Shown here: positions 2,454-31,969 of the stretch, piece after piece
Numbering within the stretch: position 1 is the stretch's first letter
How the letters are laid out: each line of letters starts with the position of its first letter
Origin: Candidatus Saccharimonadota bacterium
GTDB taxonomy: Bacteria; Patescibacteriota; Gracilibacteria; UBA4473
DNA: 32,000 bases
Assembly: GCA_963677105.1 (NCBI GenBank)
Contig: OY781871.1
Location: 360,001 to 392,000, forward strand
Direction of reading: 5' to 3'
The notes under the pieces: generated by a model
Databases searched by the model: none
What the model saw: the letters and a program-made list of their open reading frames with translations, nothing else
Told to the model about the DNA's origin: nothing
Program-made: the position numbers and the translations under genes

Positions 2454-2490
2454 TTTGTAGTTTGTATTTTGAAATTTGTATGGTTTGAAG
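2454..2490 (+). repeat. Heptamer array a: TTTGTAG TTTGTAT TTTGAAA TTTGTAT gg TTTGAAG
   Basis: TTTG recurs with exact 7-nt period. The array lies between the upstream terminator and the methyltransferase start (ATG 2524), in TTTG-sense relative to that gene. Confidence 0.85.
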
Positions 2491-2523
2491 CAACACACCA
2501 AACCTGTTACTCTCCTCTGTGAA

Positions 2524-3378
2524 ATGACACAACAAAACTTTGACTACGAACTTATCGACTGTGGAAACGAACGTCGCCTAGAACGTTTCGGAAAAACAAT
2601 TGTAAATCGTCCTGCTCCGCAGGCGTTTTGGCATAGAAATGATATGATTGAAGAATGGAAGAATATCGATGCATATTATGAACGTCCTGAAAATGGAGAA
2701 AAAAAATGGAGTAAAGATTCTCAATTCCCTGAAAACTGGAACATAACTATTGATAATATTACGTTTGAACTTCGTCCCTCTGTAAATAATCAACTCGGAA
2801 TTTTTCCTGAACAATTAGAAAACTGGCGATGGATGACAAGACAAATTCAAAAGGCAAATCGCCCGCTCAAAATCTTGAATACTTTTTCTTATACGGGAGC
2901 CGCAACATTGATGGCAAGTGCCGCTGCTGAAAATGTAGAAGTTTGTCATGTAGATGGAGCCAAATCTTCTGTTACATGGGCACGAAAAAATGCAGAACTT
3001 TCTGGACTTTCTGATCGACCGATTCGTTGGATTGTTGATGACGTATTGCAATTCATGGAACGCGAAGTAAAACGTGGCAACAAATATGATGGAATTATTT
3101 TAGATCCACCGGCTTTCGGTCGCGGAGCAAAAGGAACATGGAAACTTCAACGAGATTTACCGAAACTTCTAAACCTTGTCGAAAAACTTCTCTCTGAAAA
3201 TCCTTGTTTTGTAATCTTGAGTTGTCACTCAACTGAATTTGCTTCAAAAGACTTAGCACAAATGCTTGAAAAAATTCCTCCTTTTTCTGGAAAACAATCT
3301 GAATCTGTAAATCTGATTATTCCATCTACAAATGGATCTGAATTGTGGTCTGGTACTTGTGGAAGAATAGCAGGATAA
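2524..3378 (+). CDS. Class I SAM-dependent methyltransferase, RlmI/PF10672-like (no PUA domain)
   Basis: The DGIILDPPAFGRG motif and the preceding TFSYTGAATL glycine-rich SAM loop are typical of the RlmI/YccW family. The track ORF starts at TTG 2476. I prefer ATG 2524 (MTQQNFDYELIDCGNERRLERFG), which does not overlap heptamer array a. Confidence 0.7.
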   Translation: MTQQNFDYELIDCGNERRLERFGKTIVNRPAPQAFWHRNDMIEEWKNIDAYYERPENGEKKWSKDSQFPENWNITIDNITFELRPSVNNQLGIFPEQLENWRWMTRQIQKANRPLKILNTFSYTGAATLMASAAAENVEVCHVDGAKSSVTWARKNAELSGLSDRPIRWIVDDVLQFMEREVKRGNKYDGIILDPPAFGRGAKGTWKLQRDLPKLLNLVEKLLSENPCFVILSCHSTEFASKDLAQMLEKIPPFSGKQSESVNLIIPSTNGSELWSGTCGRIAG

Positions 3379-3380
3379 AA

Positions 3381-3415
3381 CTACAAATTACAATGTACAA
3401 AGTTCAAATCACAAG
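3381..3415 (-). repeat. Heptamer array b (read on minus strand): CTTGTGA TTTGAAC TTTGTAC ATTGTAA TTTGTAG
   Basis: 7-nt periodicity. Starts 2 nt after the methyltransferase stop codon (TAA 3376-3378). Inverted relative to array a. Confidence 0.85.
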
Positions 3416-3491
3416 CTTTTTAATTTCAAACTGAAGTTTGACCGATACGCCTTTCTGCGGTATTTTTTTTCAGCAAACAATTTCTTGAAAT

Positions 3492-5288
3492 ATGAATGTT
3501 ACAACCGACGATCTGAGAAAAAAGTGGCTTGAATTTTGGAAAAAAAAGAATCACATCATTATTCCTTCTGCTGGAGTTTTGCCGGACAATGATCCAACCG
3601 CATTATTTCACAATTCTGGAATGCATCCGCTTGTTCCGTATCTTTGTGGACAAACTCATCCCGAAGGACGTCAATTAGCAAATGCGCAAAAATGTATTCG
3701 TACAGGTGATATTGATGAAGTTGGTGACGCAACACATTTAACATTTTTTGAAATGTTGGGAAACTGGTCATTGGGCGATTATTTTAAAAAAGAACAGATT
3801 GAATGGTCGTTTGAATTTTTAACACAAGAATTAAACCTTCCTTTGGAAAAGTTAGCAGTAAGTGTTTTTGCTGGAGACGATGATGCTCCACGAGATCAAG
3901 AAGCTGCTGATTTGTGGAAAGCTGCTGGAATTCCTGAAAACAAAATTGCATATCTCGGTAAATCAGATAATTGGTGGGCAAAAGGAGACATTGGTCCATG
4001 TGGAACAGACACAGAAATGTTTTTTTGGACTGGAGATGAAGCTGCTCCCAAAAGTTTTCAAGAATCACACAATGATCCTCGATGGGTTGAAATTTGGAAC
4101 GACGTTTTTATGACCTTTAATCGAAAAGCTGATGGAAGTTTGGAAGAATTGGAACAAAAAAATATCGATACTGGAATGGGACTAGAACGAACTGTTGCTG
4201 TTTTAAATGGAAAAAAATCCGTATATGAAACAGATGCTTTCACTGAGATTTTAGCGAAAATTGCAGAACTTTCTGGAGATCCAAAACTTGCAATCAATCC
4301 TCTTGCAGAAACAGCCGCAGCAAACTCAATGCGCGTTATTGCTGATCACATACGATCAGGAAGTATGATTCTCGCTGATAAGGTTTCCCCGAGTAATGTT
4401 GATCAAGGATATATTCTTCGCCGACTTCTCAGACGTGCTATTCGTCATGGAAAAAAACTCGGAATTGAAGGACATTTCACTGTAAAAATTGCTGAAGAAG
4501 TGAAGAAAAAACTCGGACATCAATACACTGAATTAGAAAAAAACTGGAATTTTATCGTAGAAGAACTCGAGCAAGAAGAAGAACAATTTGCGAAAACACT
4601 TGAAACGGGAGAACGCGAATTTAATAAATTAGCCGGAAAAATTTTAGAATTTTCGAATAAAAAAGAACTCAGTGGGAAAAAAGCATTTTGGCTCTATGAA
4701 ACCTATGGATTTCCATTTGAAATGACTGAGGAATTGTGTGCCGAACAAGGACTCACTGTAGATAAAAGTGGATTCGATGAAGCGGCAAAAAAGCATGCTG
4801 AGGCTTCACGTGCAGGTTCTGAACAAAAATTCAAAGGAGGTCTTGGAGATACTTCTGTGGAAACAACTAATTTACATACCGCAACGCACCTCCTTCATGC
4901 TGCATTAAAAAAAGTTTTGGGAGATCACGTTGAACAACGCGGATCAAATATAACACCTGAACGATTGCGATTTGATTTTTCTCATGGAGAAAAGATGACA
5001 CCAGAAGAAAAAACCAAAGTAGAAAACCTCGTTAATGAAGCTATCGATGCAAATGTCGAAATCACGTGTGAAGAAACGTCCGTCGATGATGCAAAATCTC
5101 AGGGAGCAATTGGACTCTTTGGAAACAAGTATGGAGAAAAAGTGAAAATGTACACGATGGGAGCATTTTCTAAAGAAATTTGTGGAGGACCACATGCAGA
5201 AAAAACGGGAAATCTCGGGAAGTTTCGTATTAAAAAAGAAGAAGCATCTTCTCGCGGAGTACGACGAATTAAAGCGGTGCTGGATTAA
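3492..5288 (+). CDS. alaS: Alanine--tRNA ligase, short form ending after the editing domain
   Basis: Class II AlaRS N-terminus (FHNSGMHPLVPYLCG, KCIRTGDIDEVGD.THLTFFEMLGNWS.GDYFK). Editing-domain HxxxH (HTATHLLHAALKKVLG) and CGGPH motifs. The protein ends at VRRIKAVLD, with no C-Ala/oligomerisation domain. Confidence 0.93.
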   Translation: MNVTTDDLRKKWLEFWKKKNHIIIPSAGVLPDNDPTALFHNSGMHPLVPYLCGQTHPEGRQLANAQKCIRTGDIDEVGDATHLTFFEMLGNWSLGDYFKKEQIEWSFEFLTQELNLPLEKLAVSVFAGDDDAPRDQEAADLWKAAGIPENKIAYLGKSDNWWAKGDIGPCGTDTEMFFWTGDEAAPKSFQESHNDPRWVEIWNDVFMTFNRKADGSLEELEQKNIDTGMGLERTVAVLNGKKSVYETDAFTEILAKIAELSGDPKLAINPLAETAAANSMRVIADHIRSGSMILADKVSPSNVDQGYILRRLLRRAIRHGKKLGIEGHFTVKIAEEVKKKLGHQYTELEKNWNFIVEELEQEEEQFAKTLETGEREFNKLAGKILEFSNKKELSGKKAFWLYETYGFPFEMTEELCAEQGLTVDKSGFDEAAKKHAEASRAGSEQKFKGGLGDTSVETTNLHTATHLLHAALKKVLGDHVEQRGSNITPERLRFDFSHGEKMTPEEKTKVENLVNEAIDANVEITCEETSVDDAKSQGAIGLFGNKYGEKVKMYTMGAFSKEICGGPHAEKTGNLGKFRIKKEEASSRGVRRIKAVLD

Positions 5289-5348
5289 TCTACGCTTTGT
5301 GCAATATAAAAATCCTGATTTAGTTTAATATTTGGGTCTAATATCTGT

Positions 5349-5582: not shown

Positions 5583-5610
5583 TTTGTACTTTGAAGTTTG
5601 AAGTTTGATT
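5583..5610 (+). repeat. Heptamer array c: TTTGTAC TTTGAAG TTTGAAG TTTGATT
   Basis: Exact 7-nt period. The last unit overlaps the first base of the pyrF stop codon (minus-strand TAA at 5610-5612). Confidence 0.85.
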
Positions 5611-6484: not shown

Positions 6485-6745
6485 TTAGTGAATCGTTTCT
6501 TCTCCCTGTTGAACATTTTTCGATGCTAATTCGTCAGAATACATATGCTGCAATAATCTTGGACTATCTCCCAAAACTTCCCATACTTTTTTTTCAATTT
6601 CGGTGATCATTCCTGGAAACTCACTTTTTGCTGCTTGAACACACGGAAATAACTTGTGTGGAGAAGTAACTCCATTTGCACCTGCAAATTCATTTAAATC
6701 TTTTTCTAATTGAACGAGTGCTTTTTCTCCTTCTGGATTTGCCAT
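6485..6745 (-). CDS. Hypothetical protein (86 aa), upstream of and co-oriented with pyrF
   Basis: ATG-initiated ORF 41 nt upstream of pyrF. No motif recognised. Confidence 0.45.
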   Translation of the reverse strand: MANPEGEKALVQLEKDLNEFAGANGVTSPHKLFPCVQAAKSEFPGMITEIEKKVWEVLGDSPRLLQHMYSDELASKNVQQGEETIH

Positions 6746-6826
6746 TTTTCATTTTTATTAAAAAATCATACACAATTTACACTTTTACTAAAAGTTGTCA
6801 ACCGAGTCTTAATCACTGCGCAAAAT

Positions 6827-6854: not shown

Positions 6855-6866
6855 TCTTTCGCTCTT

Positions 6867-6916
6867 GCACGAGTGGCGAAGAGTAGACCTGCCTGCCGGC
6901 AGGCAGGCGCGCTTAG
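6867..6916 (+). pseudogene. Degenerate duplicate of the 5' half of tRNA-Leu (acceptor 5' strand, D-arm, start of anticodon stem), interrupted by a 20-bp palindrome
   Basis: GCACGAGTGGCGAAGAGTAGAC[20-bp palindrome]CGCGCTTAG compares with the intact tRNA GCACGAGTGGCGAAACGGTAGACGCGCTAGC at 7194-7224. The conserved D-loop GG is lost and there is no 3' half. Confidence 0.75.
6888..6907. repeat. Perfect 20-bp GC-rich palindrome CCTGCCTGCCGGCAGGCAGG
   Basis: Exact self-complementarity. Inserted between GTAGA and CGC of the tRNA-like fragment. Strikingly GC-rich for this AT-rich spacer. Confidence 0.9.
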
Positions 6917-6955
6917 ATTTTTGACAATTCAAAGCAGATATTTAACATTTTAGAG

Positions 6956-7228
6956 ATGTTCTATGTGTATGTCTTAAAGAGTAAAAATCGAAATTATATT
7001 TATGTTGGTTTAACTTCCAATATTGAGCGGCGTGTAAATCAACACAATTCGTTGAAAGAAAAAACTACTCGATCATATGCACCCTTTACATTAATTCATT
7101 CTGAAACTTTTAAAACTCGTCCAGAAGCTCGTAAAAGAGAAATATTCTTCAAATCTGGATGTGGAAAAGAATGGATAAAGAAACAATTTATCAGCACGAG
7201 TGGCGAAACGGTAGACGCGCTAGCTTGA
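6956..7228 (+). CDS. GIY-YIG (URI-domain) nuclease family protein, YhbQ/COG2827-like
   Basis: MFYVYVLKS..NYIYVGLTSNIERRVNQHN...K.RPEARKREIFFKSG matches the GIY-x10-YVG, R, and E signature of small stand-alone GIY-YIG proteins. The last 11 codons and the TGA stop lie inside tRNA-Leu. The stop covers loop position 33 and anticodon positions 34-35. Confidence 0.8.
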   Translation: MFYVYVLKSKNRNYIYVGLTSNIERRVNQHNSLKEKTTRSYAPFTLIHSETFKTRPEARKREIFFKSGCGKEWIKKQFISTSGETVDALA

Positions 7229-7282
7229 GGGGCTAGTGGGAAATTTATTCCCGTGGAGGTTCAAATCCTCTCTCGTGCACCA
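7194..7282 (+). tRNA. tRNA-Leu(GAG), type II with long variable arm and encoded CCA
   Basis: Manual cloverleaf: GCACGAG/CTCGTGC acceptor; anticodon arm CTAGC-TTGAGGG-GCTAG; variable arm TGGGAAATTTATTCCCGT; T-arm GGAGG-TTCAAAT-CCTCT; discriminator A then CCA. Collinear with E. coli tRNA-Leu. Confidence 0.9.
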
Positions 7283-7634: not shown

Positions 7635-7669
7635 TTTGTACTCTGTATTTTGTAATTTGAACTTTGATA
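7635..7669 (+). repeat. Heptamer array d: TTTGTAC TCTGTAT TTTGTAA TTTGAAC TTTGATA
   Basis: 7-nt period. Occupies the convergent gap and ends 1 nt before the stop codon (7671-7673) of the minus-strand 202-aa gene. Confidence 0.85.
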
Positions 7670-7670
7670 T

Positions 7671-8279
7671 CTAGTAGCACTCAATCTTATACTCAACACG
7701 ATCCGCATTTTCTCCGGATTTAATTTGGTATGTCAAAAATGCTGTTTCATCATCCAATATCATACTATTTGGAAGATTTCTCATCTGAGCTGGAACTAAA
7801 TCATTCACCGTAACAGCTGCACTATAAACTGATTTTTGTTTTTTAGCAGCAATTCCCATGATTTGAATTGACCCAATTTGTGGCTGATCTAAATCACGAA
7901 ATTCATCTCGTAAACGCACGATTATTCGTGCTCCGTTTGCACACGTATTTTCATGAATCATAAATGAAATCATTCCACTTAAATCTTTGGCTAACAAATA
8001 TTCATGTCCACTTTTAACAGCTGAATCTTTTTGTTGAATAGCCCTTAGAGCAAGACTCATTTCTTTTATTTCTTCTAACAATTCTTGTTGCACTGCTTTT
8101 TCTGGTGACACAAGTGATGTTTTCAATTCTTCCCACGGAGTCATTATGACAGCGACTACAACTACAACAAGCCCCACTATACCAAAAGAAACATTTCGAA
8201 TAACTGTCCCAGAAATTTCAATAAATTCAGGTTTTTTCTTTCCTTTCTTGATATTAAAATTTTCGGGGAGATTCATCAT
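7671..8279 (-). CDS. Hypothetical membrane-anchored protein (202 aa)
   Basis: Single N-terminal TM segment (VSFGIVGLVVVVVAVIMTPW) followed by a ~150-aa domain. Lies downstream of thrS on the same strand. No motif recognised. Confidence 0.55.
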   Translation of the reverse strand: MMNLPENFNIKKGKKKPEFIEISGTVIRNVSFGIVGLVVVVVAVIMTPWEELKTSLVSPEKAVQQELLEEIKEMSLALRAIQQKDSAVKSGHEYLLAKDLSGMISFMIHENTCANGARIIVRLRDEFRDLDQPQIGSIQIMGIAAKKQKSVYSAAVTVNDLVPAQMRNLPNSMILDDETAFLTYQIKSGENADRVEYKIECY

Positions 8280-8353: not shown

Positions 8354-10078
8354 TTATTGTAATTTTTTTAACAGTGATGCGAGAGACATATTCATATCTT
8401 TTTTTTCTCCATATTTTCGAACAGTGAGTTCACCTGATTTTAATTCTTCATCACCAATTATTGCTGCAAATGGTATTTTTCGTGTCTGAGCCAATCGAAT
8501 ACGTTTTCCAAGTGTTTCTCTTGGATCGAGTAATTCAACGAAAACACCTTCTGATTCAAGTTCTTTCTGAACCTCTTCCGCTCGCTTCATATGCGCATCA
8601 GTTACCGGCAATAATGAAATTTGAATTGGTGCAACCCACGCTGGTAAAGCTCCAGCTGTGTGCTCAATAAGAATTCCGATAAATCGCTCAATTGATCCAA
8701 AAATTACACGATGCAACATCACTGGTCGATGTTTTTCTCCATCCGCACCAACATAAGTAAGATCAAATCGTTCTGGCATTGCAAAATCAAGTTGAACGGT
8801 TCCACATTGCCATGTTCGCCCAATCGCATCTTTTAAGTGAAAATCCAATTTTGGTCCATAAAATGCTCCATCACCTGGATTAATTTTAAATTCTAATCCT
8901 GATTTTTGAATCACTTTTTCCAAAATAGATTCTGCTTTCTCCCACATAGAATCTTCTCCAATCGCTTTTTCAGGTTTTGTAGAAAGTTCGACATGAAAAT
9001 CGAATCCAAATTTAGAATAAAACTCTTTTGCGAGCTGAATTACATTTTTCAATTCTGTTTCTACTTGATCAATCGTACAGAAAATATGTGCATCATCTTG
9101 TGTAAACGCTCGCACACGAAACAATCCGTGTAATGTTCCTGATAACTCGTGTCGATGAACTAATCCTAATTCAGCTAAACGCAATGGTAAATCTCGATAT
9201 GAATGCAATCCATTTTTATAAATAAGCATTCCTCCCGGACAATTCATTGGTTTTACTGCAAATCCTTTTTCATCAATTTCGGTAAAATACATATTTTCTT
9301 TGTAGTTCGCATAATGTCCTGATTGATGCCACAAATCTTCGCTCAACATCATCGGTGTTTTCACATATTTGTATCCATATTCATCATGTTTTTCGTGCCA
9401 ATATTTCAATAATCGATTCATAACTGTCATTCCATTTGGATGCCAAAAGGGAAATCCTGGACCTTCATCATGAAAGGAAAATAAATCGAGTTCTTGTCCT
9501 AATTTTCGATGATCACGTTTTGCTGCTTCTTCAAGCACCATTAGATATTCATCCAGTTTTTCTTGGGTTGAGAAGGCAACTCCATAAATACGCGTTAACG
9601 ATGGTTTGTTTGCATCTCCACGCCAATACGCTCCTGCAATTTTCATAATTTTAAACGCTCCTAATTGTCCGGTAGATTCCAAATGTGGTCCCGCACAAAT
9701 ATCTCTATAAACAACTCTTCCAGATTCATCTTCAAAATCGTATGCAGAAATTTGTTCCCCACGTTTCACTATTCCTTCAATTAACTCTAATTTGAACGGA
9801 TCATCTGCCCAGATTTTCAAGGATTCTGCTTCAGAAAATTCTTTCCGAACAATTTTAAAATCTTTATTAATAATCCAACGCATTTTCTTCTCAATCGCCT
9901 TAAAATCATTTTCTCCGAGTGGATTTTCACCAAAATCAAAATCTTGATAAAACATATCTTCCGTCCATGGACCAACTCCAAGTTTAATCTCTTTACTCAT
10001 CATTTTGACTGCATATGTCATAATGTGTGAACCGGTATGTCGTCGCATCACTTCGAGATCGAGTTTTTTTTCGTTCAT
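8354..10078 (-). CDS. thrS: Threonine--tRNA ligase lacking the N-terminal TGS domain
   Basis: 574 aa. The editing/SAD HxxxH is already at residues 14-18 (RHTGSHIMTYAV). Class II core motifs are present (FRVRAFTQDDAHIF, GAFYGPKLDF) with a C-terminal anticodon-binding domain. Confidence 0.93.
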   Translation of the reverse strand: MNEKKLDLEVMRRHTGSHIMTYAVKMMSKEIKLGVGPWTEDMFYQDFDFGENPLGENDFKAIEKKMRWIINKDFKIVRKEFSEAESLKIWADDPFKLELIEGIVKRGEQISAYDFEDESGRVVYRDICAGPHLESTGQLGAFKIMKIAGAYWRGDANKPSLTRIYGVAFSTQEKLDEYLMVLEEAAKRDHRKLGQELDLFSFHDEGPGFPFWHPNGMTVMNRLLKYWHEKHDEYGYKYVKTPMMLSEDLWHQSGHYANYKENMYFTEIDEKGFAVKPMNCPGGMLIYKNGLHSYRDLPLRLAELGLVHRHELSGTLHGLFRVRAFTQDDAHIFCTIDQVETELKNVIQLAKEFYSKFGFDFHVELSTKPEKAIGEDSMWEKAESILEKVIQKSGLEFKINPGDGAFYGPKLDFHLKDAIGRTWQCGTVQLDFAMPERFDLTYVGADGEKHRPVMLHRVIFGSIERFIGILIEHTAGALPAWVAPIQISLLPVTDAHMKRAEEVQKELESEGVFVELLDPRETLGKRIRLAQTRKIPFAAIIGDEELKSGELTVRKYGEKKDMNMSLASLLKKLQ

Positions 10079-11338: not shown

Positions 11339-11364
11339 TTCATTAATAATTGAACAACTAAAAT

Positions 11365-11396
11365 AACTCTCTCCGTAGTAGGAGGGAGTTTTTTTA
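11365..11396 (+). terminator. Rho-independent terminator of gap
   Basis: AACTCTCTCC-gtagta-GGAGGGAGTT (10 bp, one G-U), followed by TTTTTTT. Confidence 0.8.
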
Positions 11397-11793
11397 TTCA
11401 AAAGTTTTCCTTTTGTATCGAAACTTTTTGCTTCAATAACTTTGCCTAAAACCGTCCCCAATCACTTTTCATAATATTTGTATTTTTTGTATCGAAAGCT
11501 TTTTGTTTCAAAGTTTTCATATTGTTTTATTAAACAATAAAGTAGTTTACCAAATACTATAAATAAAATCAAACACTTTTTTGGCAAATATGAATAAATA
11601 GTCGTTATCTAAAAGAGGAAATTTCTTTGCCTCTTCTTAGAATACAAGTAAACTCCTCACGAATGGCTAGCAACTAAATGCTAATTGCGGCTCAGTACCG
11701 CCAGATTCGCCATCTGAAAAAGCTCTTCCCACGAAGTTCCTAACAAATCCCACATACGGGATAAGGCTCGTGCGTTCATAATTAAAAACAAAT

Positions 11794-14772: not shown

Positions 14773-14895
14773 TCTGTGTTGATGTCGACCTACTTTCCCA
14801 GGATAACTCCAAGTATCATCGGCGCTGAAAGGCTTAACTGCTGAGTTCGGGATGGTATCAGGTGTACCCCCTTCGCTACAAACATCAACACAGAG
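14773..14895 (-). rRNA. rrf: 5S ribosomal RNA (ends +/- 5 nt)
   Basis: The reverse complement reads ...GTAGCGAAGGGGGTACACCTGATACCATCCCGAACTCAGCAGTTAAGCCTTTCAGCGCCGATGATACTTGG...GGGAAAGTAGGTCGACATCAACA, collinear with bacterial 5S. The terminal helix is formed by CTCTGTGTTGATGT / ACATCAACACAGAG. Confidence 0.93.
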
Positions 14896-15009
14896 TTTTC
14901 TAATTCTAGAATATAACTCTGATACGTAACAAATTCCTAAGGTCATTCAAATGTTTCTGAAACATTTCCTCTAAATTGTTCACCGAACGATGAAACAAAT
15001 TACTTGAAA

Positions 15010-17900
<2,891 letters not shown>

Positions 17901-18176: not shown

Positions 18177-18204
18177 ATATTATCCAGAAAACCACTGCTG
18201 TCAA
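18177..18204 (-). promoter_or_regulatory. Consensus-like sigma70 promoter (TTGACA-16-TAATAT) for the 23S-5S unit
   Basis: On the minus strand, TTGACA (18204-18199), 16-nt spacer, TAATAT (18182-18177). An A/T-rich UP-like tract lies upstream (ttcttcaaaaaaaga). About 270 nt upstream of the 23S 5' end. Confidence 0.65.
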
Positions 18205-21106: not shown

Positions 21107-21144
21107 CAGAGGAATATTAGCATCGAAACACAATAGAAAGCAAG

Positions 21145-21179
21145 ATTCAAAGTACAAAGTGCAAAGTTCAATTTACAAA
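21145..21179 (-). repeat. Heptamer array e (read on minus strand): TTTGTAA ATTGAAC TTTGCAC TTTGTAC TTTGAAT
   Basis: 7-nt period. Lies 38 nt upstream of the surface-protein start (21106), in TTTG-sense relative to that gene. Confidence 0.85.
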
Positions 21180-21244
21180 CCTTAAATGAGAAAGAGTAAA
21201 CAAGGGAGACTTTTTTAAAATTATATTTGGAATAACAAAAAAAT

Positions 21245-21272
21245 TTTGTACTTTGATATTTGTTCTTTGTGT
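21245..21272 (+). repeat. Heptamer array f: TTTGTAC TTTGATA TTTGTTC TTTGTGT
   Basis: 7-nt period. Lies just distal to the rplL terminator and is inverted relative to array e. Confidence 0.8.
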
Positions 21273-21275
21273 TTT

Positions 21276-21311
21276 TAAAAAACTCCCATCTCATTGAGAT
21301 GGGAGTTTTTC
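21276..21311 (-). terminator. Rho-independent (bidirectional-type) terminator of rplJ-rplL
   Basis: ACTCCCATCTC-att-GAGATGGGAGT (11 bp), flanked by an A-run and a T-run. Confidence 0.85.
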
Positions 21312-21331
21312 TGTGTTCCTCCTTTTGGAAA

Positions 21332-23814: not shown

Positions 23815-24045
23815 CAAAAATAGTTTCTCTTGAATAGAAACAAAATTCAAATTAAAAAGTTGCATTTGTGCGCGCCGCAAAAAACGATTATTTGAAATGA
23901 ATGCTCAAATCGCCAAAGGCGATTTAATGAATGAGAATATTTCGTTTGCAAGCAATCAACAGCAACGAGCTTTTTTGTTTCTTTTTTCGCGGAGAAAAAA
24001 GAAAGGCGTTTTTAAAGATTTCTCCACTTTGGTCGAAATGACAAC

Positions 24046-26882: not shown

Positions 26883-26971
26883 GCGCCGAGTGTGCCATGG
26901 AATGAGAAATTGAGCAAATTGGCGAGTTTGGATTTAGTAAAAAAAACTGGGAAAAATATAAACTCTTAAAA

Positions 26972-26999
26972 TTTCAATTTTCAAACTACAATTTACAAA
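26972..26999 (-). repeat. Heptamer array g-left (read on minus strand): TTTGTAA ATTGTAG TTTGAAA ATTGAAA
   Basis: 7-nt period. Points toward murJ (start 26882). Directly abuts array g-right, forming a palindromic centre TTTACAAA|TTTGTAA. Confidence 0.85.
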
Positions 27000-27037
27000 T
27001 TTGTAATTTGAACTTTGGAGTTTTAAGCGAAACGACT
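27000..27037 (+). repeat. Heptamer array g-right: TTTGTAA TTTGAAC TTTGGAG TTTTAAG, plus the shared tail CGAAACGACT
   Basis: 7-nt period. Points toward the LTD-protein gene (start 27110). The tail TTTTAAGCGAARCGAYT recurs at 31953-31969. Confidence 0.85.
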
Positions 27038-27109
27038 TTGTGAATTTTTCATGAATAATTTTAGTGCAAACAATTGAGAGAGTTTAGGTCTCTGCTAGAA
27101 AAAATAAAG

Positions 27110-29422
27110 ATGAAATATGTGATTATAAGTTTTTTTCTCTTTTGGGTAGTAATAACACAAGCTGCTATTCGAATAAACGAAGTCGCTTGGTCAGGAACTC
27201 CAACGAGTAGTAATGACGAATGGATTGAACTTTTTAATGATGGAGAAGAAACTATTTCCGTAGAAAACTGGACTCTAAAAGCAGTCGATGAAAGTCCTGA
27301 CATAACTCTTGCTGGAGAAATCGAACCAAATGGATTTTTTCTACTAGAACGAACCGATGATACAACCGTCCCAAATATTGAAGCGAATATAATTTATGCT
27401 GGATCACTTTCTAACACTGGCGAAGAATTGATTTTGAGTGATGAACATGAAAACGAAATTTGTAGAACTCCTTCTGGAAATTGGCCCGCTGGAGAAAGTT
27501 CTCCTGAAAGACGATCCATGATGTGGCTTGAAAATGAATGGAAAACTTTTTTGGGAGAAGCCAATGAATTTGGAATATTTGGAACTCCTGGAACAGAAAA
27601 TATAATTCCTCCTCCAGAACCACCGGAAACTACGTTTCAATCTGCAGAACCAATAAGTGTGAAAATATCCGAATTATCTCCCATCTCCATTGGAGAACCT
27701 GAATGGTTTGAAGTAGAAATATTGGCAATCAACGCTATTGACCTCGATAAATGGAAAATCAAAAAAGGCACAAGTGAGATTTTGTTATCAGAACTCACAT
27801 TTGCAAATGGTGGACAATCCCTTTCTGGACAATCTGTAACACTTCTTGAAAACGGTCTTGTAGGACATGAACAACTCAATGGAACGGATTTTACGTTTAC
27901 TGAAGATTCTCAAGTTTGGCTAAGTGATAATGAATCTACTCCTCTTCGATTTGTCGGAAACCCCAGTCCAATAAGTCTTCCTGACGGCGGAGGAGCTCTA
28001 GAAATTCTAAATGAGCAAAACGAAGTTTTGAGTTCTGCCACGTGGGGAAATACTCGAAATGGAGTACAGGATGGGTTTCGCTGGGGAGAAATTTGGAATT
28101 GGAATCCAATAAAATATTGGCCGTTACGAAGTAATGAAAATGCTCCAACTCACACTCGTGGAGAGGAAAATAGAACTGCTCCTGTCTTTCCTGAGCAACT
28201 AAATATTCGTATCGATGAAATTTCGCCGAATAGAATAAATGGCGTTGATTTCATTGAAATACTGATCACTGAAGCCCCAGAAAATAGCATTCTTCCTCCA
28301 TGGAATATAAAACATAATGGAACAGAACTTTTCTCGAGCGGAGGAGAATTTGTAGAATCTGGAGATAGAATTACGCTTTTTTTTGAAAGTGAACTCGTCG
28401 AAGAAAATCCTTCACGATGGATAAATAGAACTACTTCAAACGATACGCAAACAGAAAAAATTTGGGAAAGCAGTAAAAAAAATGGGCTCAATAAAACGAG
28501 CGGTACTTTAGAATTAAATATTTGGACTGGAACAAGCTGGGAAAAAACTGCAGATTTTATTTGTTGGGTTAAAGACGAATTACCCGAGGCGGAACAAGTT
28601 CGATTAGAAAATCATCCAGATGATTGGATTGGATCATGTTTTCAAAACGCAAGTATATTGCAAAACGAGTCAATCGCTCGACCAGAAGAATCAATAGACA
28701 CAAATAGTGCTACTGATTTTTTCCATCATTTCAATGGTTCTCCTGAAGAAATAAATATTCCTCAAAATGCCCCACCTGTTCCAAAAATACTCGTTCAGGG
28801 AAGTCGACGCGTGTATGATGCATCACTTAATTTGACTGGACTTGATGGCGAAAATGCTACAACCGATCCTGATGGATTACATGATTTGAAGTCTTGGAAA
28901 TGGGAAATTGAAGGAACCAGTTGTGGGAATTATTCTACTGATAATTGGGAGTGGAGTAATGTAAAAAAAGGAATTAAATCATGTGAAGAAGAAAGCTCGC
29001 GTGCCAACCCAGGAGTAATTTATTTTAACTTCAATGAACAAGAAAAATTTCATGTAACACTGACCGCAGAAGATTATTCTGGCGCAAATGCAAGCGTGAC
29101 AGTAGAACTTGATCGTGATCCGTTCAATGTTGGTGGCGGAGGAAGTGTTTTTGATGCTCCGTTAAAAAAATGGCTTGCAAAAGAACTTGAAAAAGATGCA
29201 ATACAAGAGCGAAAAACGTTAAAAGTTGGAACAAATCAATCAATAAGTGAACATTTTTTCGATGATTTTTTAACACATCTTGATTATAAAAAAATAGATC
29301 CTCGATTTTGGAAACCAAATCCTCCCCAACCAAAATTAATTTCTGGAAAATTTCGTGATCGAATCCCAGAAGACGACATATTTAAAATTAAAAAAAATAT
29401 CGGATTAGTCTTTTTATATTAA
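27110..29422 (+). CDS. Secreted protein with three lamin-tail-domain (LTD) modules and a PKD-like domain
   Basis: Preferred start ATG 27110 (MKYVIISFFLFWVVITQA signal). LTD signature I.I.E(V/L/I)....(E/D)(W/F)(I/F)E(L/I) occurs three times (IRINEVAWSG...NDEWIELFNDGEE..SVENWTL; VKISELSPISIGEPEWFEVE; IRIDEISPNRINGVDFIEILI). PKD-like segment TDPDG..DLKSWKWEI...FHVTLTAEDYSGANAS. Confidence 0.75.
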   Translation: MKYVIISFFLFWVVITQAAIRINEVAWSGTPTSSNDEWIELFNDGEETISVENWTLKAVDESPDITLAGEIEPNGFFLLERTDDTTVPNIEANIIYAGSLSNTGEELILSDEHENEICRTPSGNWPAGESSPERRSMMWLENEWKTFLGEANEFGIFGTPGTENIIPPPEPPETTFQSAEPISVKISELSPISIGEPEWFEVEILAINAIDLDKWKIKKGTSEILLSELTFANGGQSLSGQSVTLLENGLVGHEQLNGTDFTFTEDSQVWLSDNESTPLRFVGNPSPISLPDGGGALEILNEQNEVLSSATWGNTRNGVQDGFRWGEIWNWNPIKYWPLRSNENAPTHTRGEENRTAPVFPEQLNIRIDEISPNRINGVDFIEILITEAPENSILPPWNIKHNGTELFSSGGEFVESGDRITLFFESELVEENPSRWINRTTSNDTQTEKIWESSKKNGLNKTSGTLELNIWTGTSWEKTADFICWVKDELPEAEQVRLENHPDDWIGSCFQNASILQNESIARPEESIDTNSATDFFHHFNGSPEEINIPQNAPPVPKILVQGSRRVYDASLNLTGLDGENATTDPDGLHDLKSWKWEIEGTSCGNYSTDNWEWSNVKKGIKSCEEESSRANPGVIYFNFNEQEKFHVTLTAEDYSGANASVTVELDRDPFNVGGGGSVFDAPLKKWLAKELEKDAIQERKTLKVGTNQSISEHFFDDFLTHLDYKKIDPRFWKPNPPQPKLISGKFRDRIPEDDIFKIKKNIGLVFLY

Positions 29423-29432
29423 AAAATTACAA

Positions 29433-29467
29433 TTTGTACTTTGCACTTTGTAATTTGAAATTTGATC
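29433..29467 (+). repeat. Heptamer array h: TTTGTAC TTTGCAC TTTGTAA TTTGAAA TTTGATC
   Basis: Exact 7-nt period. Fills the convergent gap: it starts 10 nt after the LTD-gene stop and overlaps the stop codon (29466-29468) of the minus-strand gene by 2 nt. Confidence 0.9.
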
Positions 29468-30551
29468 ACTGTGTTGTCCACGCGCTTGGAGAAATTACTC
29501 GACCAAATGGATCTTCAGGGAAATTTACAACTTGAATATCTTGCGCAATTGCTGCTCTATTTGCTATGAGAACTGTTTGAATATTTTCTAATACCAAAAC
29601 ATATTCTGAAGTTTTTTGAGCAAAAATACGTCGTGCTTCAGCGTCAACAGAAAATTTTTGAAGATCTTTTTCCGCTTCTATTTTTCTGTCCAACAGCAAG
29701 GAAATGTCTTCTGGATTCGATGTTTTTAATGCGTCAAGGAATAAGGTTTCACTCTCTAGTGAAGCATTTCGTGCAGTGGCTGCTAGACGAGTAAACTCTG
29801 TGATGTCTTGCGACAATCTCGCTTGCAATACATCTGATCGACTTATTAATCGAGCAATCATTTGGAGTAATCGACCAACTTGATAATCTCGCAAAATTGC
29901 TGTTTCTCCTGTGATTTGCTCTGGAAATGGAACTTCAAACACACTCTCTACTTCGCGTTTCCAAAGTAACACTTCTGCCAATAAACCTTTTTGATCAGAA
30001 AGTCGCTGCGTTTCAATCCAATAATTCCACACCCCTAAAGAACGTCCAGCCATACTTTTTTGGGCAACCGTCGCCTTTTCTGTTGAGGAATTTTGCACTA
30101 TTTTTTCTTTTTTCTTTCCTGCTCGTTGAAGTTTTTCTGATAATGCATCTTTGGTTGGAAAAATTTTTGTCTTTACAGATTCTATTGCTATCGGCTTCTC
30201 TTGCAACGCCTTTTTCACATCTAGTTTGTCACTTCCTCCCCAAATCAACCAACCAACTATTCCCAATCCTCCTAGAACCAAAAGTGTTTTAAGAATTCCA
30301 AATCCAACACGACGCAAGAGCCAAACTGTATCTGTTGTGTCTTCCAAATCTGTTAACTCTTCATCTAATTCATCAAACTGATTTTCAGCTTGTTCTAATT
30401 TTTCCTTATCTTCTAATTCCGTCTCCGTCGGCTGTTTTTCAGGCTCAATAAGTGACTTCTCCTCTTCGAGAAAAGGTTGTGGTGCTGCAACTTGCTCCGA
30501 TGCTGGAGTAGTCGTCGCTTCTGTTGTTGATTCAAATGGATTTTCTACCAT
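29466..30551 (-). CDS. Hypothetical single-pass membrane protein (361 aa) with an acidic N-terminus and a helical C-terminal domain
   Basis: Preferred start ATG 30551 (MVENPFESTTE...), which avoids a 50-nt overlap with ruvC. TM segment VGFGILKTLLVLGGLGIVGWLIWGG. No family recognised. Confidence 0.6.
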   Translation of the reverse strand: MVENPFESTTEATTTPASEQVAAPQPFLEEEKSLIEPEKQPTETELEDKEKLEQAENQFDELDEELTDLEDTTDTVWLLRRVGFGILKTLLVLGGLGIVGWLIWGGSDKLDVKKALQEKPIAIESVKTKIFPTKDALSEKLQRAGKKKEKIVQNSSTEKATVAQKSMAGRSLGVWNYWIETQRLSDQKGLLAEVLLWKREVESVFEVPFPEQITGETAILRDYQVGRLLQMIARLISRSDVLQARLSQDITEFTRLAATARNASLESETLFLDALKTSNPEDISLLLDRKIEAEKDLQKFSVDAEARRIFAQKTSEYVLVLENIQTVLIANRAAIAQDIQVVNFPEDPFGRVISPSAWTTQ

Positions 30552-30582
30552 CGTGTAATTATACCTCAATCTATAGAAAAAA

Positions 30583-31050
30583 TCAAACGCGAAGCGCCCA
30601 CATCGCTGCTGCGATCGCATCTGCAGCATCATCTATTTTTGGATTCTTTTCGAGTCCAAATTGCAACTTCGCCATTTTCTTCATTTCCGCTTTATTCGCT
30701 CGTCCATTTCCAGTAAAAGAAAGTTTTAATTCTACTGGTTTTGGTTCTACTACACGACATCCTGCTCGTTCTGCAAGAAGTAAAAGAACACCTCTTGCTC
30801 CAGCCACACGCATTGCTGTGGTTGTATTTGAGCCAAAGAAAAGATCTTCAATCGATACTATTTCTGGTTTCCATTTTTTGAAGAGAAACTCAAAATCAGT
30901 TGCCAATTCGTGTAATCGCGCTGGAAATGGAGAATTTGGTTCGGTTGTTATCGTTCCAAATGTACATAATTCTGGTTTCGCCTTATTGGATGCGTCCAAA
31001 ACTGCAAATCCACATCGCCCAAATCCCGGATCAACACCAAGTATTTTCAT
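30583..31050 (-). CDS. ruvC: Crossover junction endodeoxyribonuclease RuvC
   Basis: Preferred start ATG 31050 (MKILGVDPGFGRCGFAVLD). C-terminal catalytic DAADAIAAAMWA. About 155 aa, typical of RuvC. Confidence 0.9.
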   Translation of the reverse strand: MKILGVDPGFGRCGFAVLDASNKAKPELCTFGTITTEPNSPFPARLHELATDFEFLFKKWKPEIVSIEDLFFGSNTTTAMRVAGARGVLLLLAERAGCRVVEPKPVELKLSFTGNGRANKAEMKKMAKLQFGLEKNPKIDDAADAIAAAMWALRV

Positions 31051-31255
31051 TATTGAAAGTATAGCGAATATTTCCATTTTTGCATGAAAATAGTGTATGT
31101 AAACCTCATTTATTTCTCTCAACTATTTTAAAACTTGACTAAATAACGAGTTCCGTGTTTTATAATATCGTATTTTTCTTTTCTTTCGAGAAGAGAAAGA
31201 TCTGATCTTTGAGAAGTCGAAGAATGTTTTCTTACTAATAAAAGGAAGTCGTATC

Positions 31256-31540
31256 ATGGAAAGAAAAATATTTCTCGCAACAGAGAAAGGTTGTTATGAC
31301 TTTATGTTCCCAGAACGAGAAAATGAATATCATATCTTGCTCATAATAAATAAAGATGGTGCAAATATCGAAAAAGCACCAAACACTTCACAATCAAGAA
31401 AAATTATTTTTACTGACACTGTAAATGAAATGGTATCAGAGCTTACAACTTCATCAGAAGATAGAGATATTGTGATTATTGAAAATAAAGATAATACCCT
31501 TTCTTTGTTTCAACTAAAACAATCTCCTGTAATCGCTTAA
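31256..31540 (+). CDS. Hypothetical protein (94 aa)
   Basis: ATG ORF with an aaaGGAAG RBS-like tract 7 nt upstream. No motif recognised. Confidence 0.45.
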   Translation: MERKIFLATEKGCYDFMFPERENEYHILLIINKDGANIEKAPNTSQSRKIIFTDTVNEMVSELTTSSEDRDIVIIENKDNTLSLFQLKQSPVIA

Positions 31541-31577
31541 CACCTGCCTATAAGGCATACAAATATTGGAGAAGAAT

Positions 31578-31847
31578 ATGAGTGCTAGAGAGTATTCACG
31601 AGGAAAAGATATCCTCGCCGTTTTAAAAATCAACGCGAAAAGATTGGGTTTTAACTTTTCGTCACTTGATAATGTATATTTTGAAATATGTTCATCGGAC
31701 CATTCTAAAAACTGTAAAAAACAAATAGAGGAAATTGAGTCATTAATTGCAAATGCCGTTCCTCCATATGTAATTGAACCTAATGGAATTGAAAACGATG
31801 ATATTTTCCTCGAAAAATGGAAATTTATCCGTATTCAACCAAGATAA
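31578..31847 (+). CDS. Hypothetical protein (89 aa)
   Basis: ATG 31578 preceded by tGGAGaag; the track uses TTG 31566. Followed by a terminator. No motif recognised. Confidence 0.45.
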   Translation: MSAREYSRGKDILAVLKINAKRLGFNFSSLDNVYFEICSSDHSKNCKKQIEEIESLIANAVPPYVIEPNGIENDDIFLEKWKFIRIQPR

Positions 31848-31848
31848 T

Positions 31849-31880
31849 AAGAAGAAGCTTTTTGCTTCTTCTTTCTTCCT
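31849..31880 (+). terminator. Rho-independent terminator after the two small ORFs
   Basis: AAGAAGAAGC-ttttt-GCTTCTTCTT, followed by TCTTCC (weak U-tract). Confidence 0.6.
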
Positions 31881-31938
31881 AAAACATTCTTCCACTTCTC
31901 TTTTTTTTAATACCTTTTCGCTCGCAAAGACAACACTA

Positions 31939-31969
31939 TTTGTAGTTTGTGATTTTAAGCGAAGCGATT
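31939..31969 (+). repeat. Heptamer array i: TTTGTAG TTTGTGA TTTTAAG, plus the shared tail CGAAGCGATT
   Basis: Same family. The last unit plus tail match 27021-27037 (TTTTAAGCGAARCGAYT). Confidence 0.75.

Follow-up and report, generated by a model that had tools for sequence, protein, structure and literature searches.

Intergenic TTTGNAN heptamer arrays in a small candidate-phyla-radiation bacterium belong to a described class of repeats and may be operator-like sites

A family of tandem heptamer arrays with the unit TTTGNAN was identified in a 32,000-nt stretch (the window) of the 962-kb genome of a small candidate-phyla-radiation bacterium. The family is real and not due to chance. Its arrays are members of an already described, still unexplained class of bacterial heptamer repeats and do not represent a new kind of element. 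The sample consists of ten arrays only. An initial annotation of this DNA had listed them, and all were found at its coordinates and in its orientation; its count of eleven arrays at ten loci has to be corrected to ten arrays in eight intergenic gaps, since the gaps 21107-21331 and 26883-27109 hold two each. Period-7 arrays were called independently by Tandem Repeats Finder at seven of the ten.

Arrays were far commoner than in composition-matched shuffles. Three consecutive TTTGNAN units with at most two mismatches were matched 28 times (0.81 expected), and the largest shuffle count was 4, so that none of 100 shuffles reached 28. The 4143 nt of non-coding DNA (13% of the window) contained 11 arrays of at least three units, compared with 0.59 expected from composition-matched dinucleotide shuffles (maximum 4 in 500), and 8 arrays of at least four units compared with 0.016. 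TTTG-to-TTTG spacings peaked at 7, 14, 21 and 28 in intergenic DNA only. The proposed confinement to non-coding DNA was borne out: no array of at least four units lies inside any gene, and the genic 87% of the window has only two marginal three-unit matches with 2-3 mismatches (23838-23858 and 31705-31725). Arrays 3 and 9 each reach 1-2 nt into a stop codon, and one more weak match (18097-18117) was observed in the rRNA leader. The arrays are not CRISPR, as had been stated, and an Rfam search with them gave no matching family.

Alignment of 47 units gave the per-position counts T41 T46 T47 G43 W (23 T, 20 A) A38 N, and five of the seven positions of TTTGWAN are constrained. Positions 0-3 carry 1.1-1.9 bits and position 5 carries 0.9 bits, while positions 4 and 6 are free (0.35 and 0.12 bits). 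The first unit is TTTGTA(C/G/A) in nine of the ten arrays, in line with the "nearly always" of the annotation. Neighbouring units share 4.92 of 7 bases, compared with 4.90 of 7 for units from different arrays. Because the core is constrained and neighbouring units are no more alike, the pattern appears to be maintained and not recently copied; fresh slippage copies were ruled out by the same comparison.

Several arrays run into promoters. Array 1 (forward strand) consists of TTTGTAG, TTTGTAT, TTTGAAA and TTTGTAT at 2454-2481, followed by GG and a fifth unit, TTTGAAG, at 2484-2490. This last unit contains the -35 hexamer (2485-2490) of the methyltransferase promoter, TTGAAG-17-TACTCT (2508-2513)-10 nt-ATG 2524, whose position is conserved and matches TTTACT-17-TATATT in the related genomes L081 and L203. 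Array 5 (21138-21179, reverse strand) has five units and, after extension to 21138, a degenerate sixth, CTTGCTT, which is the predicted -35 box of the Big_1 gene; the promoter as read from sequence would be TTGCTT (21143-21138)-18-TAATAT (21119-21114)-7 nt-ATG 21106. Array 6 (forward strand, extended to 21245-21279) forms a divergent pair with array 5 at a distance of 65 nt and adjoins the rplL hairpin terminator (21276-21305). Array 7 (reverse strand, extended to 26965-26999) lies back to back with array 8 (27000-27027, forward strand), which ends in TTTGGAG and TTTTAAG. Together they form a 63-nt palindrome between divergent genes with an RNA fold of -21 kcal/mol (z = -6.2), and the third unit of array 7 is the -35 box of a 10/12 promoter match, TTGAAA-18-TATATT, facing murJ.

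The five units of array 2 (3381-3415, reverse strand) start 2 nt past the methyltransferase stop codon, and the array lies 22 nt upstream of the alaS -35 box. The alaS promoter (3438-3466, forward strand; TTGACC-17-TATTTT) has a unit-like -35 reading TTTGACC and is invariant in the window and in L081, L327, L328, L203 and L205. In L081, L327 and L328, seven units in register end in (A/T)TTGACC at this conserved -35. Arrays thus enter the -35 box in 7-bp register at the methyltransferase, Big_1 and alaS promoters, the last in relatives only. The view that the arrays are not core promoters was therefore too strong, as -35 boxes lie within units of arrays 1, 5 (predicted) and 7 and in the alaS array of three relatives. 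The -10 hexamers downstream of arrays 1 and 5 are 7-10 nt before the ATG, which puts both arrays upstream of the inferred transcription start, so that they cannot act within the mRNA of the following gene.

The remaining arrays, all on the forward strand, lie at or behind gene ends. Array 3 (5583-5610; TTTGTAC TTTGAAG TTTGAAG TTTGATT) shares 1 nt with the pyrF stop codon and is 17 nt upstream of a predicted promoter, TTGACT-17-TACTTT, of a 53-aa gene on the reverse strand. Array 4 (7635-7669, five units) occupies a convergent gap of 58 nt, its end 1 nt short of the stop codon of the reverse-strand gene 7671-8279. Array 9 (29433-29467, five units) likewise fills a convergent gap, of 43 nt, with a 2-nt overlap with the stop codon of the reverse-strand gene 29466-30632. 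Arrays 4 and 9 have no promoter to regulate, an observation that speaks against operator function. Array 10 (31939-31959, three units, the last TTTTAAG) is found 66 nt past the terminator hairpin 31849-31873, and the window stops before the next gene. Because the intergenic gaps are very short, any element in them is near a promoter or a stop codon, and positional evidence is weak.

No preference for a gap type could be observed, with arrays in one of five divergent, two of five convergent and five of 17 tandem gaps. Orientation towards genes was balanced as well: in four cases an array points to a gene start and in five into the 3' end of a gene on the opposite strand, which fits a reader of duplex DNA better than a reader of RNA. 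Single arrays are not hairpins, as had been proposed, with RNA minimum free energies of 0 to -2 kcal/mol and positive z-scores. The suggestion that gaps carry either a hairpin or an array was not significant (arrays in three of 12 gaps with a strong hairpin and five of 15 without).

The initial annotation had stated that no element with this structure is described, which is wrong. Tandem heptanucleotides of cyanobacteria (Calothrix) are known as STRR. In Nostoc sp. PCC 7120, also a cyanobacterium, at least three contiguous copies of TTTTGAA/TTCAAAA are dispersed over the genome in both orientations near promoters and start codons; no binding partner has been identified for them, and they are suspected to have a global role in regulation (bioRxiv 10.1101/2022.06.06.494920). 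Shifted by one base, TTTTGAA becomes TTTGAAT, a perfect TTTG(W)A(N) unit. The Nostoc repeats are described as one unit, whereas the units of the window all differ at positions 4 and 6, and the window arrays are found equally at gene ends and gene starts. TTTTGAT heptads in the ctxAB promoter of V. cholerae recruit H-NS, ToxR and ToxT as DNA-level binding sites, and their copy number alters promoter output (10.1101/2021.05.14.444153). In the phase used here this heptad reads TTTGATT, a unit of array 3. Unlike the window arrays, the ctxAB heptads are perfect repeats of strain-variable copy number at a single prophage locus and not a dispersed family.

The ribbon-helix-helix (RHH) ParB protein omega of plasmid pSM19035 binds 7-10 contiguous, spacer-free 7-bp heptads, direct or inverted, that overlap promoters; each heptad takes one dimer, the dimers bind cooperatively, and full activity requires at least four contiguous units (PMC9499535). 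Mechanistically, omega is the best model of how duplex DNA can be read with a 7-bp period. Omega differs from the present case in its consensus (WATCACW compared with TTTGWAN) and in its six sites on one plasmid, compared with about one array per 3 kb of chromosome in the window, and no RHH gene was identified within the window.

Marine Beggiatoaceae, cyanobacteria and Bacteroidetes carry intergenic arrays of 2-6 copies of TAACTGA, of which one genome has 169 sets and some close relatives have none; their function is unknown (PMC4679880). Dispersal in intergenic DNA and patchiness among close relatives are shared with the window arrays. The unit is different, and TAACTGA is strongly oriented to the start codon, often ending 1 nt upstream (147 of 170 sets; PMC4679880), a bias that the window arrays do not have. 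As most units of both kinds carry stop codons, three units close all three frames on one strand. Over-represented heptamer tandem repeats of intergenic DNA also include GGGAATC (Xanthomonas) and GGGGA(T/C)T (Nostoc), and such heptameric simple-sequence repeats form inverted pairs and vary in length and sequence between close relatives at conserved positions (PMC4692102, citing Mrazek 2007). The window arrays are likewise over-represented and intergenic and include inverted pairs; they are T-rich, unstructured and degenerate, whereas the Xanthomonas and Nostoc heptamers are G-rich, quadruplex-capable and mostly near-perfect.

It is tentatively proposed that the arrays are DNA-level operator-like sites for a cooperative DNA-binding protein; this is a possible reading, in which we infer the protein, its identity and its effect on transcription. 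The annotation had raised a repeat-reading protein, which seems the most economical idea and has solved precedents. A small protein would bind contiguous 7-bp TTTG(W)A(N) units cooperatively and in either orientation, with about one protein unit per heptad. Candidates would be a nucleoid-associated silencer or an RHH-type repressor; to our knowledge, candidate-phyla-radiation bacteria are not known to have H-NS, ToxR or ToxT. No small ORF with a DNA-binding domain (Pfam) was found within the window, a result that counts against this reading. Where an array enters a core promoter, its last unit would double as the -35 box, and occupancy could compete with sigma region 4 and thereby tune or silence initiation. 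Where it sits shortly before a promoter or spans the gap between gene ends, the nucleoprotein block might insulate neighbouring transcription units or act as a roadblock. A DNA reader is supported by the constrained core of the unit, by the position of arrays 1 and 5 ahead of the inferred transcription start, by the 7-bp register with -35 boxes, by the balanced orientation, by the back-to-back position of arrays 7 and 8 between divergent genes, by analogy with the published omega/pSM19035 and ctxAB heptads, and by the conservation of the array at the methyltransferase stop codon.

This array (array 2) has orthologues in L081, L327 and L328 and is kept in four genomes, at 84-86% AlaS identity to the window, while its individual units turn over. 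In relatives with about 85% AlaS identity, arrays 3 and 4 are likewise matched by arrays at the equivalent positions: array 3 by one at 6541-6561 of L328, and array 4 by a degenerate copy near the stop codon of the orthologous 201-aa gene in L328. Three arrays are thus conserved in place. Sister genomes such as L203 and L205 do without arrays, which speaks against the operator reading, and L081 and L327 have arrays at one gap only. The alaS array has lost 40 nt in the window, and in L328 an array is partly duplicated around an insertion of ~270 nt. Related arrays were found in many metagenomic contigs, and the unit type recurs at GC contents of 0.25 to 0.68. Also against the operator reading, the start-codon arrays of L221 and the long hairpins of L080 and L228 point to RNA-level roles.

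A role in RNA is considered unlikely. The NNNCAAA sense after a stop codon would be an unstructured, G-poor site for Rho, a cold-shock, S1 or KH protein or an RNase, by which the upstream transcript is ended or stabilised (the alternative terminator suggested earlier), and the UUUG sense would be a leader element. Indeed, arrays 2, 3, 4 and 9 begin 0-2 nt from a stop codon, all in CAAA sense for that gene, none of their gaps has a hairpin, and CAAA-sense array RNAs are wholly unstructured (minimum free energy 0 kcal/mol). An ordinary GC-rich hairpin occupies the alaS gap of L203 where other genomes have an array pair, metagenomic arrays flank gene ends more often than gene starts (151 vs 95 flanks), inverted arrays of L080, L052 and L228 form long hairpins after gene ends, and post-transcriptional action was proposed for TAACTGA (PMC4679880). 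However, the following gene has its transcription start downstream of the array in the case of arrays 1 and 5 and the alaS arrays of relatives, arrays 7 and 8 are between divergent genes, where nothing needs terminating, and little RNA should reach arrays 1, 6 and 10 behind strong hairpin terminators. The lack of complementarity between arrays and hairpins noted above also argues against this role. In addition, arrays of 28-35 nt with ~17% C are short and C-poor for a rut site, and the alaS-gap pairs fold no better than shuffles (z = -1.5 and +0.5).

That the arrays are functionless, born by slippage as heptamer simple-sequence repeats, tolerated only in non-coding DNA and decaying by point mutation, is doubtful. 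In many genomes heptamers outnumber all other long simple-sequence repeats, and it has been suggested that they arose by slippage, according to Mrazek 2007 as reported in PMC4679880 and PMC4692102. The fast turnover among relatives and the missing gap-type preference and strand bias fit this origin, and a period of 7, which is not tolerated in coding sequence, would alone explain the intergenic restriction. Yet decay should strike all seven positions equally, whereas 38-47 of 47 units retain TTTG and A5, with positions 4 and 6 close to randomised, and neighbouring units lack the expected similarity. Moreover, all ten arrays have one consensus out of ~2300 possible heptamer classes, the core of orthologous arrays persists over ~15% AlaS divergence while their individual units change, and the same unit type is found across the range of GC contents.

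It is rather improbable that RNA polymerase itself, through sigma region 4 or the alpha C-terminal domain and without a dedicated regulator, reads the arrays as tandem -35-like boxes that recruit it upstream of promoters or serve as decoys. The extended -35 at the strongest promoters of the genome (TTTGACA for tRNA-Leu at 6826, TTTGACC for alaS) agrees with TTTG(A/T)A(N) at 5-6 of 7 bases, three to four arrays terminate in a -35, working or predicted, that keeps the 7-bp register, and among organisms so different in GC content sigma-70 is the only shared reader. Against this, about half of the arrays point into a gene 3' end without a correctly spaced -10, array 4 being the only one of these with a -10 at the right distance (TTGATA-18-TATACT). 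Sigma-70-type matches are not enriched in the window (41 vs 48 and 28 vs 36 expected), and the related L221 array, which abuts the start codon, stops 2-4 nt short of the ATG, too close for a -10 hexamer to fit in between.

REPs of E. coli are imperfect palindromes of ~35 nt with a shared sequence and a cognate RAYT transposase, and REP/BIMEs resemble the window arrays in being dispersed, intergenic, lineage-specific, often directly after stop codons and in inverted pairs. An origin as the remnants or ends of a small REP/BIME-like or MITE-like mobile element, with arms built from heptads, would account for the inverted pairs (7/8 and 5/6, and those in L081, L327, L080, L052 and L228), the perfect 23-nt heptad inverted repeat of L080, the patchy presence in close genomes and the partial duplication in L328, but is highly improbable, because six of the ten arrays are solitary, neither target-site duplications nor a common internal sequence nor a nearby transposase was found, arm lengths and spacers (0-65 nt) all differ, and the single arrays, which are not palindromic, have only a 5-base pattern in common and no longer sequence.

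Ten arrays of 3-6 head-to-tail units of 7 nt are present at separate loci within the 32-kb window, at 2454-2490 (+), 3381-3415 (-), 5583-5610 (+), 7635-7669 (+), 21138-21179 (-), 21245-21279 (+), 26965-26999 (-), 27000-27027 (+), 29433-29467 (+) and 31939-31959 (+), and are referred to here as arrays 1 to 10. All ten positions and strands reported in the initial annotation were recovered, and seven of the ten arrays were independently identified by Tandem Repeats Finder. The earlier tally of eleven arrays at ten loci was corrected to ten arrays in eight gaps, and arrays 5, 6 and 7, although rightly placed, are each one unit longer than described. Two arrays, 3 and 9, reach 1-2 nt into a stop codon. 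Seven was the only enriched tandem period in the window. A search for the three-unit pattern with up to 2 mismatches gave 28 matches, compared to 0.81 when the whole window was shuffled. In the non-coding bases (4143, 13% of the window), 11 arrays of at least three units and eight of at least four units were found, versus 0.59 and 0.016, respectively, in dinucleotide shuffles of the same bases, a large excess over composition-matched sequence and far above chance. The absence of arrays from genes was confirmed: the coding 87% holds two marginal three-unit matches and none of at least four units, and the TTTG-to-TTTG spacing peaks at 7, 14, 21 and 28 nt in intergenic DNA only. The repeat family is real, has solid statistical support and is conserved in part; its density is unusual for a small genome, with ten arrays sampled from the source genome, all within this window.

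The 47 units follow the pattern TTTG(W)A(N), with counts over positions 0-6 of T41 T46 T47 G43 W(23 T, 20 A) A38 N. TTTG and the A at position 5 are kept, positions 4 and 6 are almost free, and 25 distinct unit sequences occur. Neighbouring units within an array share 4.92 of 7 bases and units of different arrays 4.90 of 7. Because adjacent units are no more alike than units across arrays, the arrays are not recent slippage copies; the near-identical units expected of recent slippage were not seen among the 47. What is maintained is the pattern, with its 7-bp register. When read from the sequence, nearly every unit contains a stop codon on the TTTG strand, and as 7 equals 1 modulo 3, three successive units are enough to put a stop in every frame.

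By AlaS comparison, the nearest species representatives were Candidatus Peribacteria (74% identity) and Gracilibacteria MAGs. The window was compared with related contigs of 81-86% AlaS identity (L081, L201, L203, L205, L327 and L328, of which L081 and L201 belong to one 383-kb JGI contig); MurJ as a query against metagenomes retrieved no relatives. Positional conservation was observed, as a reverse array lies just after the methyltransferase stop codon in the window (array 2), L081, L327 and L328, and these orthologous arrays differ in individual units between genomes. L328 also carries an array beside the pyrF stop codon, the counterpart of array 3, and one near the stop codon of a 201-aa gene, the counterpart of array 4. 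In L203, which has 91% AlaS identity to L081, a G+C-rich hairpin (z = -3.4) replaces the alaS arrays; no arrays were found in L205, and L081 and L201 have arrays at one gap in 43 kb. Judged from these contigs, array turnover is fast. In L328 (4012-4420), the array after the methyltransferase stop codon is partly duplicated, with CTTCAAA CCGGAAA CTACAAA occurring twice, and the two copies flank an insertion of ~270 nt with its own hairpin. Fast turnover is what neutral slippage repeats would display, but such repeats account neither for the position-specific constraint nor for the common consensus, and we consider this origin unlikely. Units that are degenerate yet constrained argue for selection on a read pattern over slippage alone.

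More distant Peribacteria also contain period-7 arrays with related units, in which inverted pairs form long hairpins after a gene end. At L080 14795-14935, three AGCTCCA units face four (T/C)TTGGAG units (-73.7 kcal/mol, z = -9.5), and at L052 10070-10195 the units read ATTGAAA in the present phase (-28.9 kcal/mol, z = -3.65). The two hairpins have different unit sequences and identical architecture. Each follows a gene of ~480 aa, which is PMT_2 glycosyltransferase-like in L080 and gave no Pfam match in L052.

In the window, array orientation was defined as the direction in which TTTG is read. Four arrays (1, 5, 7 and 8) point toward a gene start and five (2, 3, 4, 6 and 9) point into an opposite-strand gene from its 3' end; array 10, where the window ends before the next gene, was left out of this count. 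There is no strand bias of the arrays relative to transcription, and no preference for a gap type, because arrays occupy one of five divergent, two of five convergent and five of 17 tandem gaps. The arrays end 34-83 nt away from a start codon or lie directly at a stop codon. Four arrays start 0-2 nt from a stop codon, all in the CAAA sense, that is, the strand complementary to TTTG, for that gene. The pairing of arrays 1 and 2 at the 5' and 3' sides of the methyltransferase gene was considered as a possible rule and rejected, as this arrangement occurs at no other gene.

Single arrays do not form hairpins, in agreement with the initial annotation: in either sense, RNA folding gave 0 to -2 kcal/mol with positive z-scores, no better than shuffles. 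The only long palindrome is formed by arrays 7 and 8, which lie back to back (-21 kcal/mol, z = -6.2). A terminator scan detected no intrinsic (Rho-independent) terminator at the arrays, and no G+C-rich hairpin followed by a U-tract. Rfam searches matched only rRNA and tRNA at the gathering score and no array position with E-values up to 1; the lone sub-threshold match, SNORA77 at 2364-2448 (E 0.57), corresponds to the terminator hairpin before array 1. The proposal that gaps carry either a hairpin or an array did not hold, as arrays occur in three of the 12 gaps that contain a strong hairpin (-13 kcal/mol or lower) and in five of the 15 that do not, a difference that is not significant. A function as terminator or insulator is still compatible with these data, which lend it no specific support. 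Action at the RNA level, as an alternative terminator or 3'-end element, would fit the four stop-abutting arrays and the hairpin that takes the place of arrays in L203, but it leaves arrays 1, 5 and 7/8 and the alaS arrays unexplained and is rather doubtful.

The view that the arrays are not obviously core promoters needs correcting, as several continue into -35 hexamers. Six genomes share an unchanged alaS promoter, TTGACC-17-TATTTT. In L081, L327 and L328 a series of seven heptads leads into its -35 without a break in the 7-bp register; in L327 they read TTTGAAG TTTGAAA TTTGTAG TTTGAAT TTTCCCA ATGGAAG TTTGACC. Alignment with the relatives indicated that 40 nt of this array were lost in the window. 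The fifth unit of array 1 is the -35 of the predicted methyltransferase promoter TTGAAG-17-TACTCT, whose -10 lies 10 nt before the ATG and whose position matches that of TTTACT-17-TATATT in L081 and L203. The sixth, degenerate unit of array 5 leads into the predicted promoter TTGCTT-18-TAATAT, 7 nt before the ATG of a Big_1 protein, and unit 3 of array 7 is the -35 of a promoter with 10 of 12 matches. Arrays 2 and 3 lie 22 and 17 nt, respectively, upstream of a predicted -35 in the opposite orientation. The promoter-joined arrays are thus placed upstream of the predicted transcription start of the gene they precede, and any effect on that gene must be at the DNA level.

The fit of the unit sequence and register to the -35 raises the question whether the arrays are a tandem series of -35-like boxes that RNA polymerase itself recognises. 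Arrays aimed into gene ends without a -10 are at odds with this, and we regard it as quite unlikely. Several more specific promoter models were rejected. An 18-bp internal spacer (TTGNAN with TANTTT three units on), which would make each array a self-contained sigma-70 promoter, fits arrays 1 and 5 only and fails as a general rule because later units are TTTGA(A/T)N and not TTTGTAN. The Bacteroidetes-type promoter motif, TTTG ... TAnnTTTG, is impossible within a strict 7-nt register, and antisense promoters at gene ends are not the rule, as a good -10 at the right spacing was found for array 4 only. For the methyltransferase, the Big_1 protein and an LTD protein (window 2508-2526, 21106-21119 and 27096-27112; predicted leaderless starts at 2524, 21106 and 27110), no more than 7-10 nt separate the -10 hexamer from the ATG, and there is no Shine-Dalgarno sequence. 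This arrangement was found again in L081, L203 and L201, which suggests that leaderless mRNAs may be common in this lineage.

The initial annotation knew of no described element with this structure, but the structure is already on record in published heptad repeats from Nostoc, the ctxAB promoter, a Beggiatoaceae genome (TAACTGA) and the Omega system. According to the accounts of Mrazek (2007) in PMC4679880 and PMC4692102, it is heptamers that show the strongest over-representation among long simple-sequence repeats in many bacterial genomes. The window arrays resemble this dispersed class (LSSR or STRR-like) in their many loci and non-coding excess, but differ in that their units are not near-identical. 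In Nostoc PCC 7120, dispersed contiguous TTTTGAA/TTCAAAA heptamers occur near promoters and start codons without a known binding partner (bioRxiv 10.1101/2022.06.06.494920). Shifted by one base, TTTTGAA becomes TTTGAAT, a perfect unit of the window consensus; TTTGAA(N) accounts for 10 of the 47 units and exact TTTGAAT for one, and no window array is a run of TTTGAAT. At the V. cholerae ctxAB promoter, 3-8 copies of the heptad TTTTGAT, TTTGATT in the window phase, recruit H-NS, ToxR and ToxT (10.1101/2021.05.14.444153). Like these, arrays 1, 5 and 7 and the alaS arrays of L081, L327 and L328 lie directly upstream of or join a core promoter, unlike arrays 4 and 9 in convergent gaps. In one Beggiatoaceae genome, 169 sets of TAACTGA repeats are found, mostly just upstream of start codons (PMC4679880). 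They also close all three frames, but have another unit and are oriented to, and end a few nt from, the start codon, whereas the window arrays are balanced in orientation. Omega, the ribbon-helix-helix ParB protein of pSM19035, binds cooperatively, one dimer per heptad, to promoter-overlapping runs of 7-10 contiguous 7-bp heptads, which may have either orientation (PMC9499535). The window arrays are similarly contiguous without spacers, and arrays 7 and 8 are inverted with zero spacer, but the Omega consensus WATCACW differs from TTTGWAN. The arrays are new, degenerate, candidate-phyla-radiation-specific members of the known class of intergenic heptamer arrays.

As stated in the initial annotation, the arrays are not CRISPR, whose repeats of 23-50 nt are separated by unique spacers, whereas these units are 7 nt and contiguous. 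IHF sites were rejected since the IHF consensus, WATCAANNNNTTR, misfits the array register. A REP/MITE-like mobile element is highly improbable, as only the inverted pairs fit it, while six arrays are solitary and non-palindromic, unlike REP/BIME or MITE, and sharing is limited to a 5-base pattern.

Our preferred but tentative reading is that the arrays are operator-like duplex-DNA sites for a cooperative heptad-reading protein, which is possible, though far from assured. Such a protein would occupy the array on duplex DNA, would compete with sigma at arrays joined to a -35, and would serve as an insulator or block at those between gene ends. The data establish that the arrays are non-random, constrained at specific positions, retained in place in relatives, in register with -35 hexamers, free of strand bias and located upstream of transcription starts; we infer the existence and identity of this reader, as well as its effect. 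Two arrays in convergent gaps and sister genomes that manage without arrays speak against the operator reading, and positional arguments are weak because the gaps are short. No candidate reader was found within the window: its small open reading frames (ORFs) were rejected, as Pfam gave no ribbon-helix-helix or other DNA-binding domain in them, even at E = 1.

Candidate-phyla-radiation bacteria have few regulators and very compact genomes and, to our knowledge, little is known about their transcription control. The arrays have a density of ~1 per three genes and five constrained positions per 7 bp, and at some the -35 is fused in register; if read by a protein, they would form a major part of the regulatory layout in this lineage. 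They tie together the scattered reports of Nostoc TTTTGAA, cholera-toxin TTTTGAT, TAACTGA and the general heptamer-repeat excess, and degenerate but constrained arrays offer a concrete handle on the long-standing question of heptamer repeats.

When metagenomes were scanned for four heterogeneous TTTG units, at least 120 loci were returned. Among the matches listed, many contigs, with GC contents of 0.25-0.68, hold TTTGNAN arrays beyond those required by the search, often as inverted pairs at gene boundaries. The pattern-matched contigs among these matches (749 kb) contain 352 period-7 arrays versus 5-42 for periods 5, 6, 8 and 9; of 196 arrays, 155 fell outside ORFs when these were called by a crude method, and they are flanked by gene ends more often than by gene starts. 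This set was chosen by the pattern itself and demonstrates breadth, not frequency. In a viral collection, many of the matches listed were on giant-virus contigs, several of them tandem and multi-copy. The viral and metagenome matches show that such arrays are widespread, and do not give an unbiased frequency. Inverted pairs between genes, CAAA-sense then TTTG-sense, were located in metagenomic contigs L228 (66% GC; 8823-9046) and L221 (43% GC; 6574-6679 and 12988-13086). In L221 the TTTG-sense arm stops 2-4 nt before the next ATG, and one array ends TTGGAG TTTTAAG, like array 8. From Peribacteria, metagenomic contigs of GC 0.25-0.68, Nostoc and a single Vibrio promoter locus, it could be proposed that T-tract heptad arrays TTTG(W)A(N), often inverted pairs at gene boundaries, are one widespread unrecognised class of cis-elements, read by a conserved factor (RNA polymerase or a cooperative heptad-binding family) and acting as orientation-independent insulators between transcription units; we hold this to be decidedly unlikely.

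The window contains bacterial 23S and 5S rRNA genes, one tRNA-Leu gene and housekeeping genes typical of small genomes (short alaS, thrS, gap, rnj, rplJ/rplL, murJ and ruvC). The 23S and 5S genes (14777-18204, - strand) have their own strong promoter, TTGACA-16-TAATAT at 18204-18177; because no 16S gene was found upstream of them, the rRNA genes appear unlinked. The 5' part of the tRNA-Leu(gag) gene (7194-7282) has a second copy at 6866-6890, followed by the perfect palindrome cctgcctgccggcaggcagg at 6887-6906 and a GIY-YIG endonuclease ORF (6956-7228) that extends over the beginning of the tRNA gene. The arrangement at 6866-7282 suggests that a homing endonuclease inserted beside or into the tRNA gene; the tRNA-containing gaps of L081, L327 and L328 have no called gene at this place. 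A 639-aa ORF at 401-2320, without a Pfam match, contains Ala/Glu-rich tandem repeats of 54 nt (18 residues) at 1217-1505 and 2028-2264, and L081, L203 and L328 have an orthologue of it ahead of the methyltransferase gene. The 455-nt stretch at 11339-11793, which separates the terminator of gap from rnj (RNase J), is non-coding, gave no Rfam match and measures ~400 nt in L081; it could serve as a long leader with a regulatory role.
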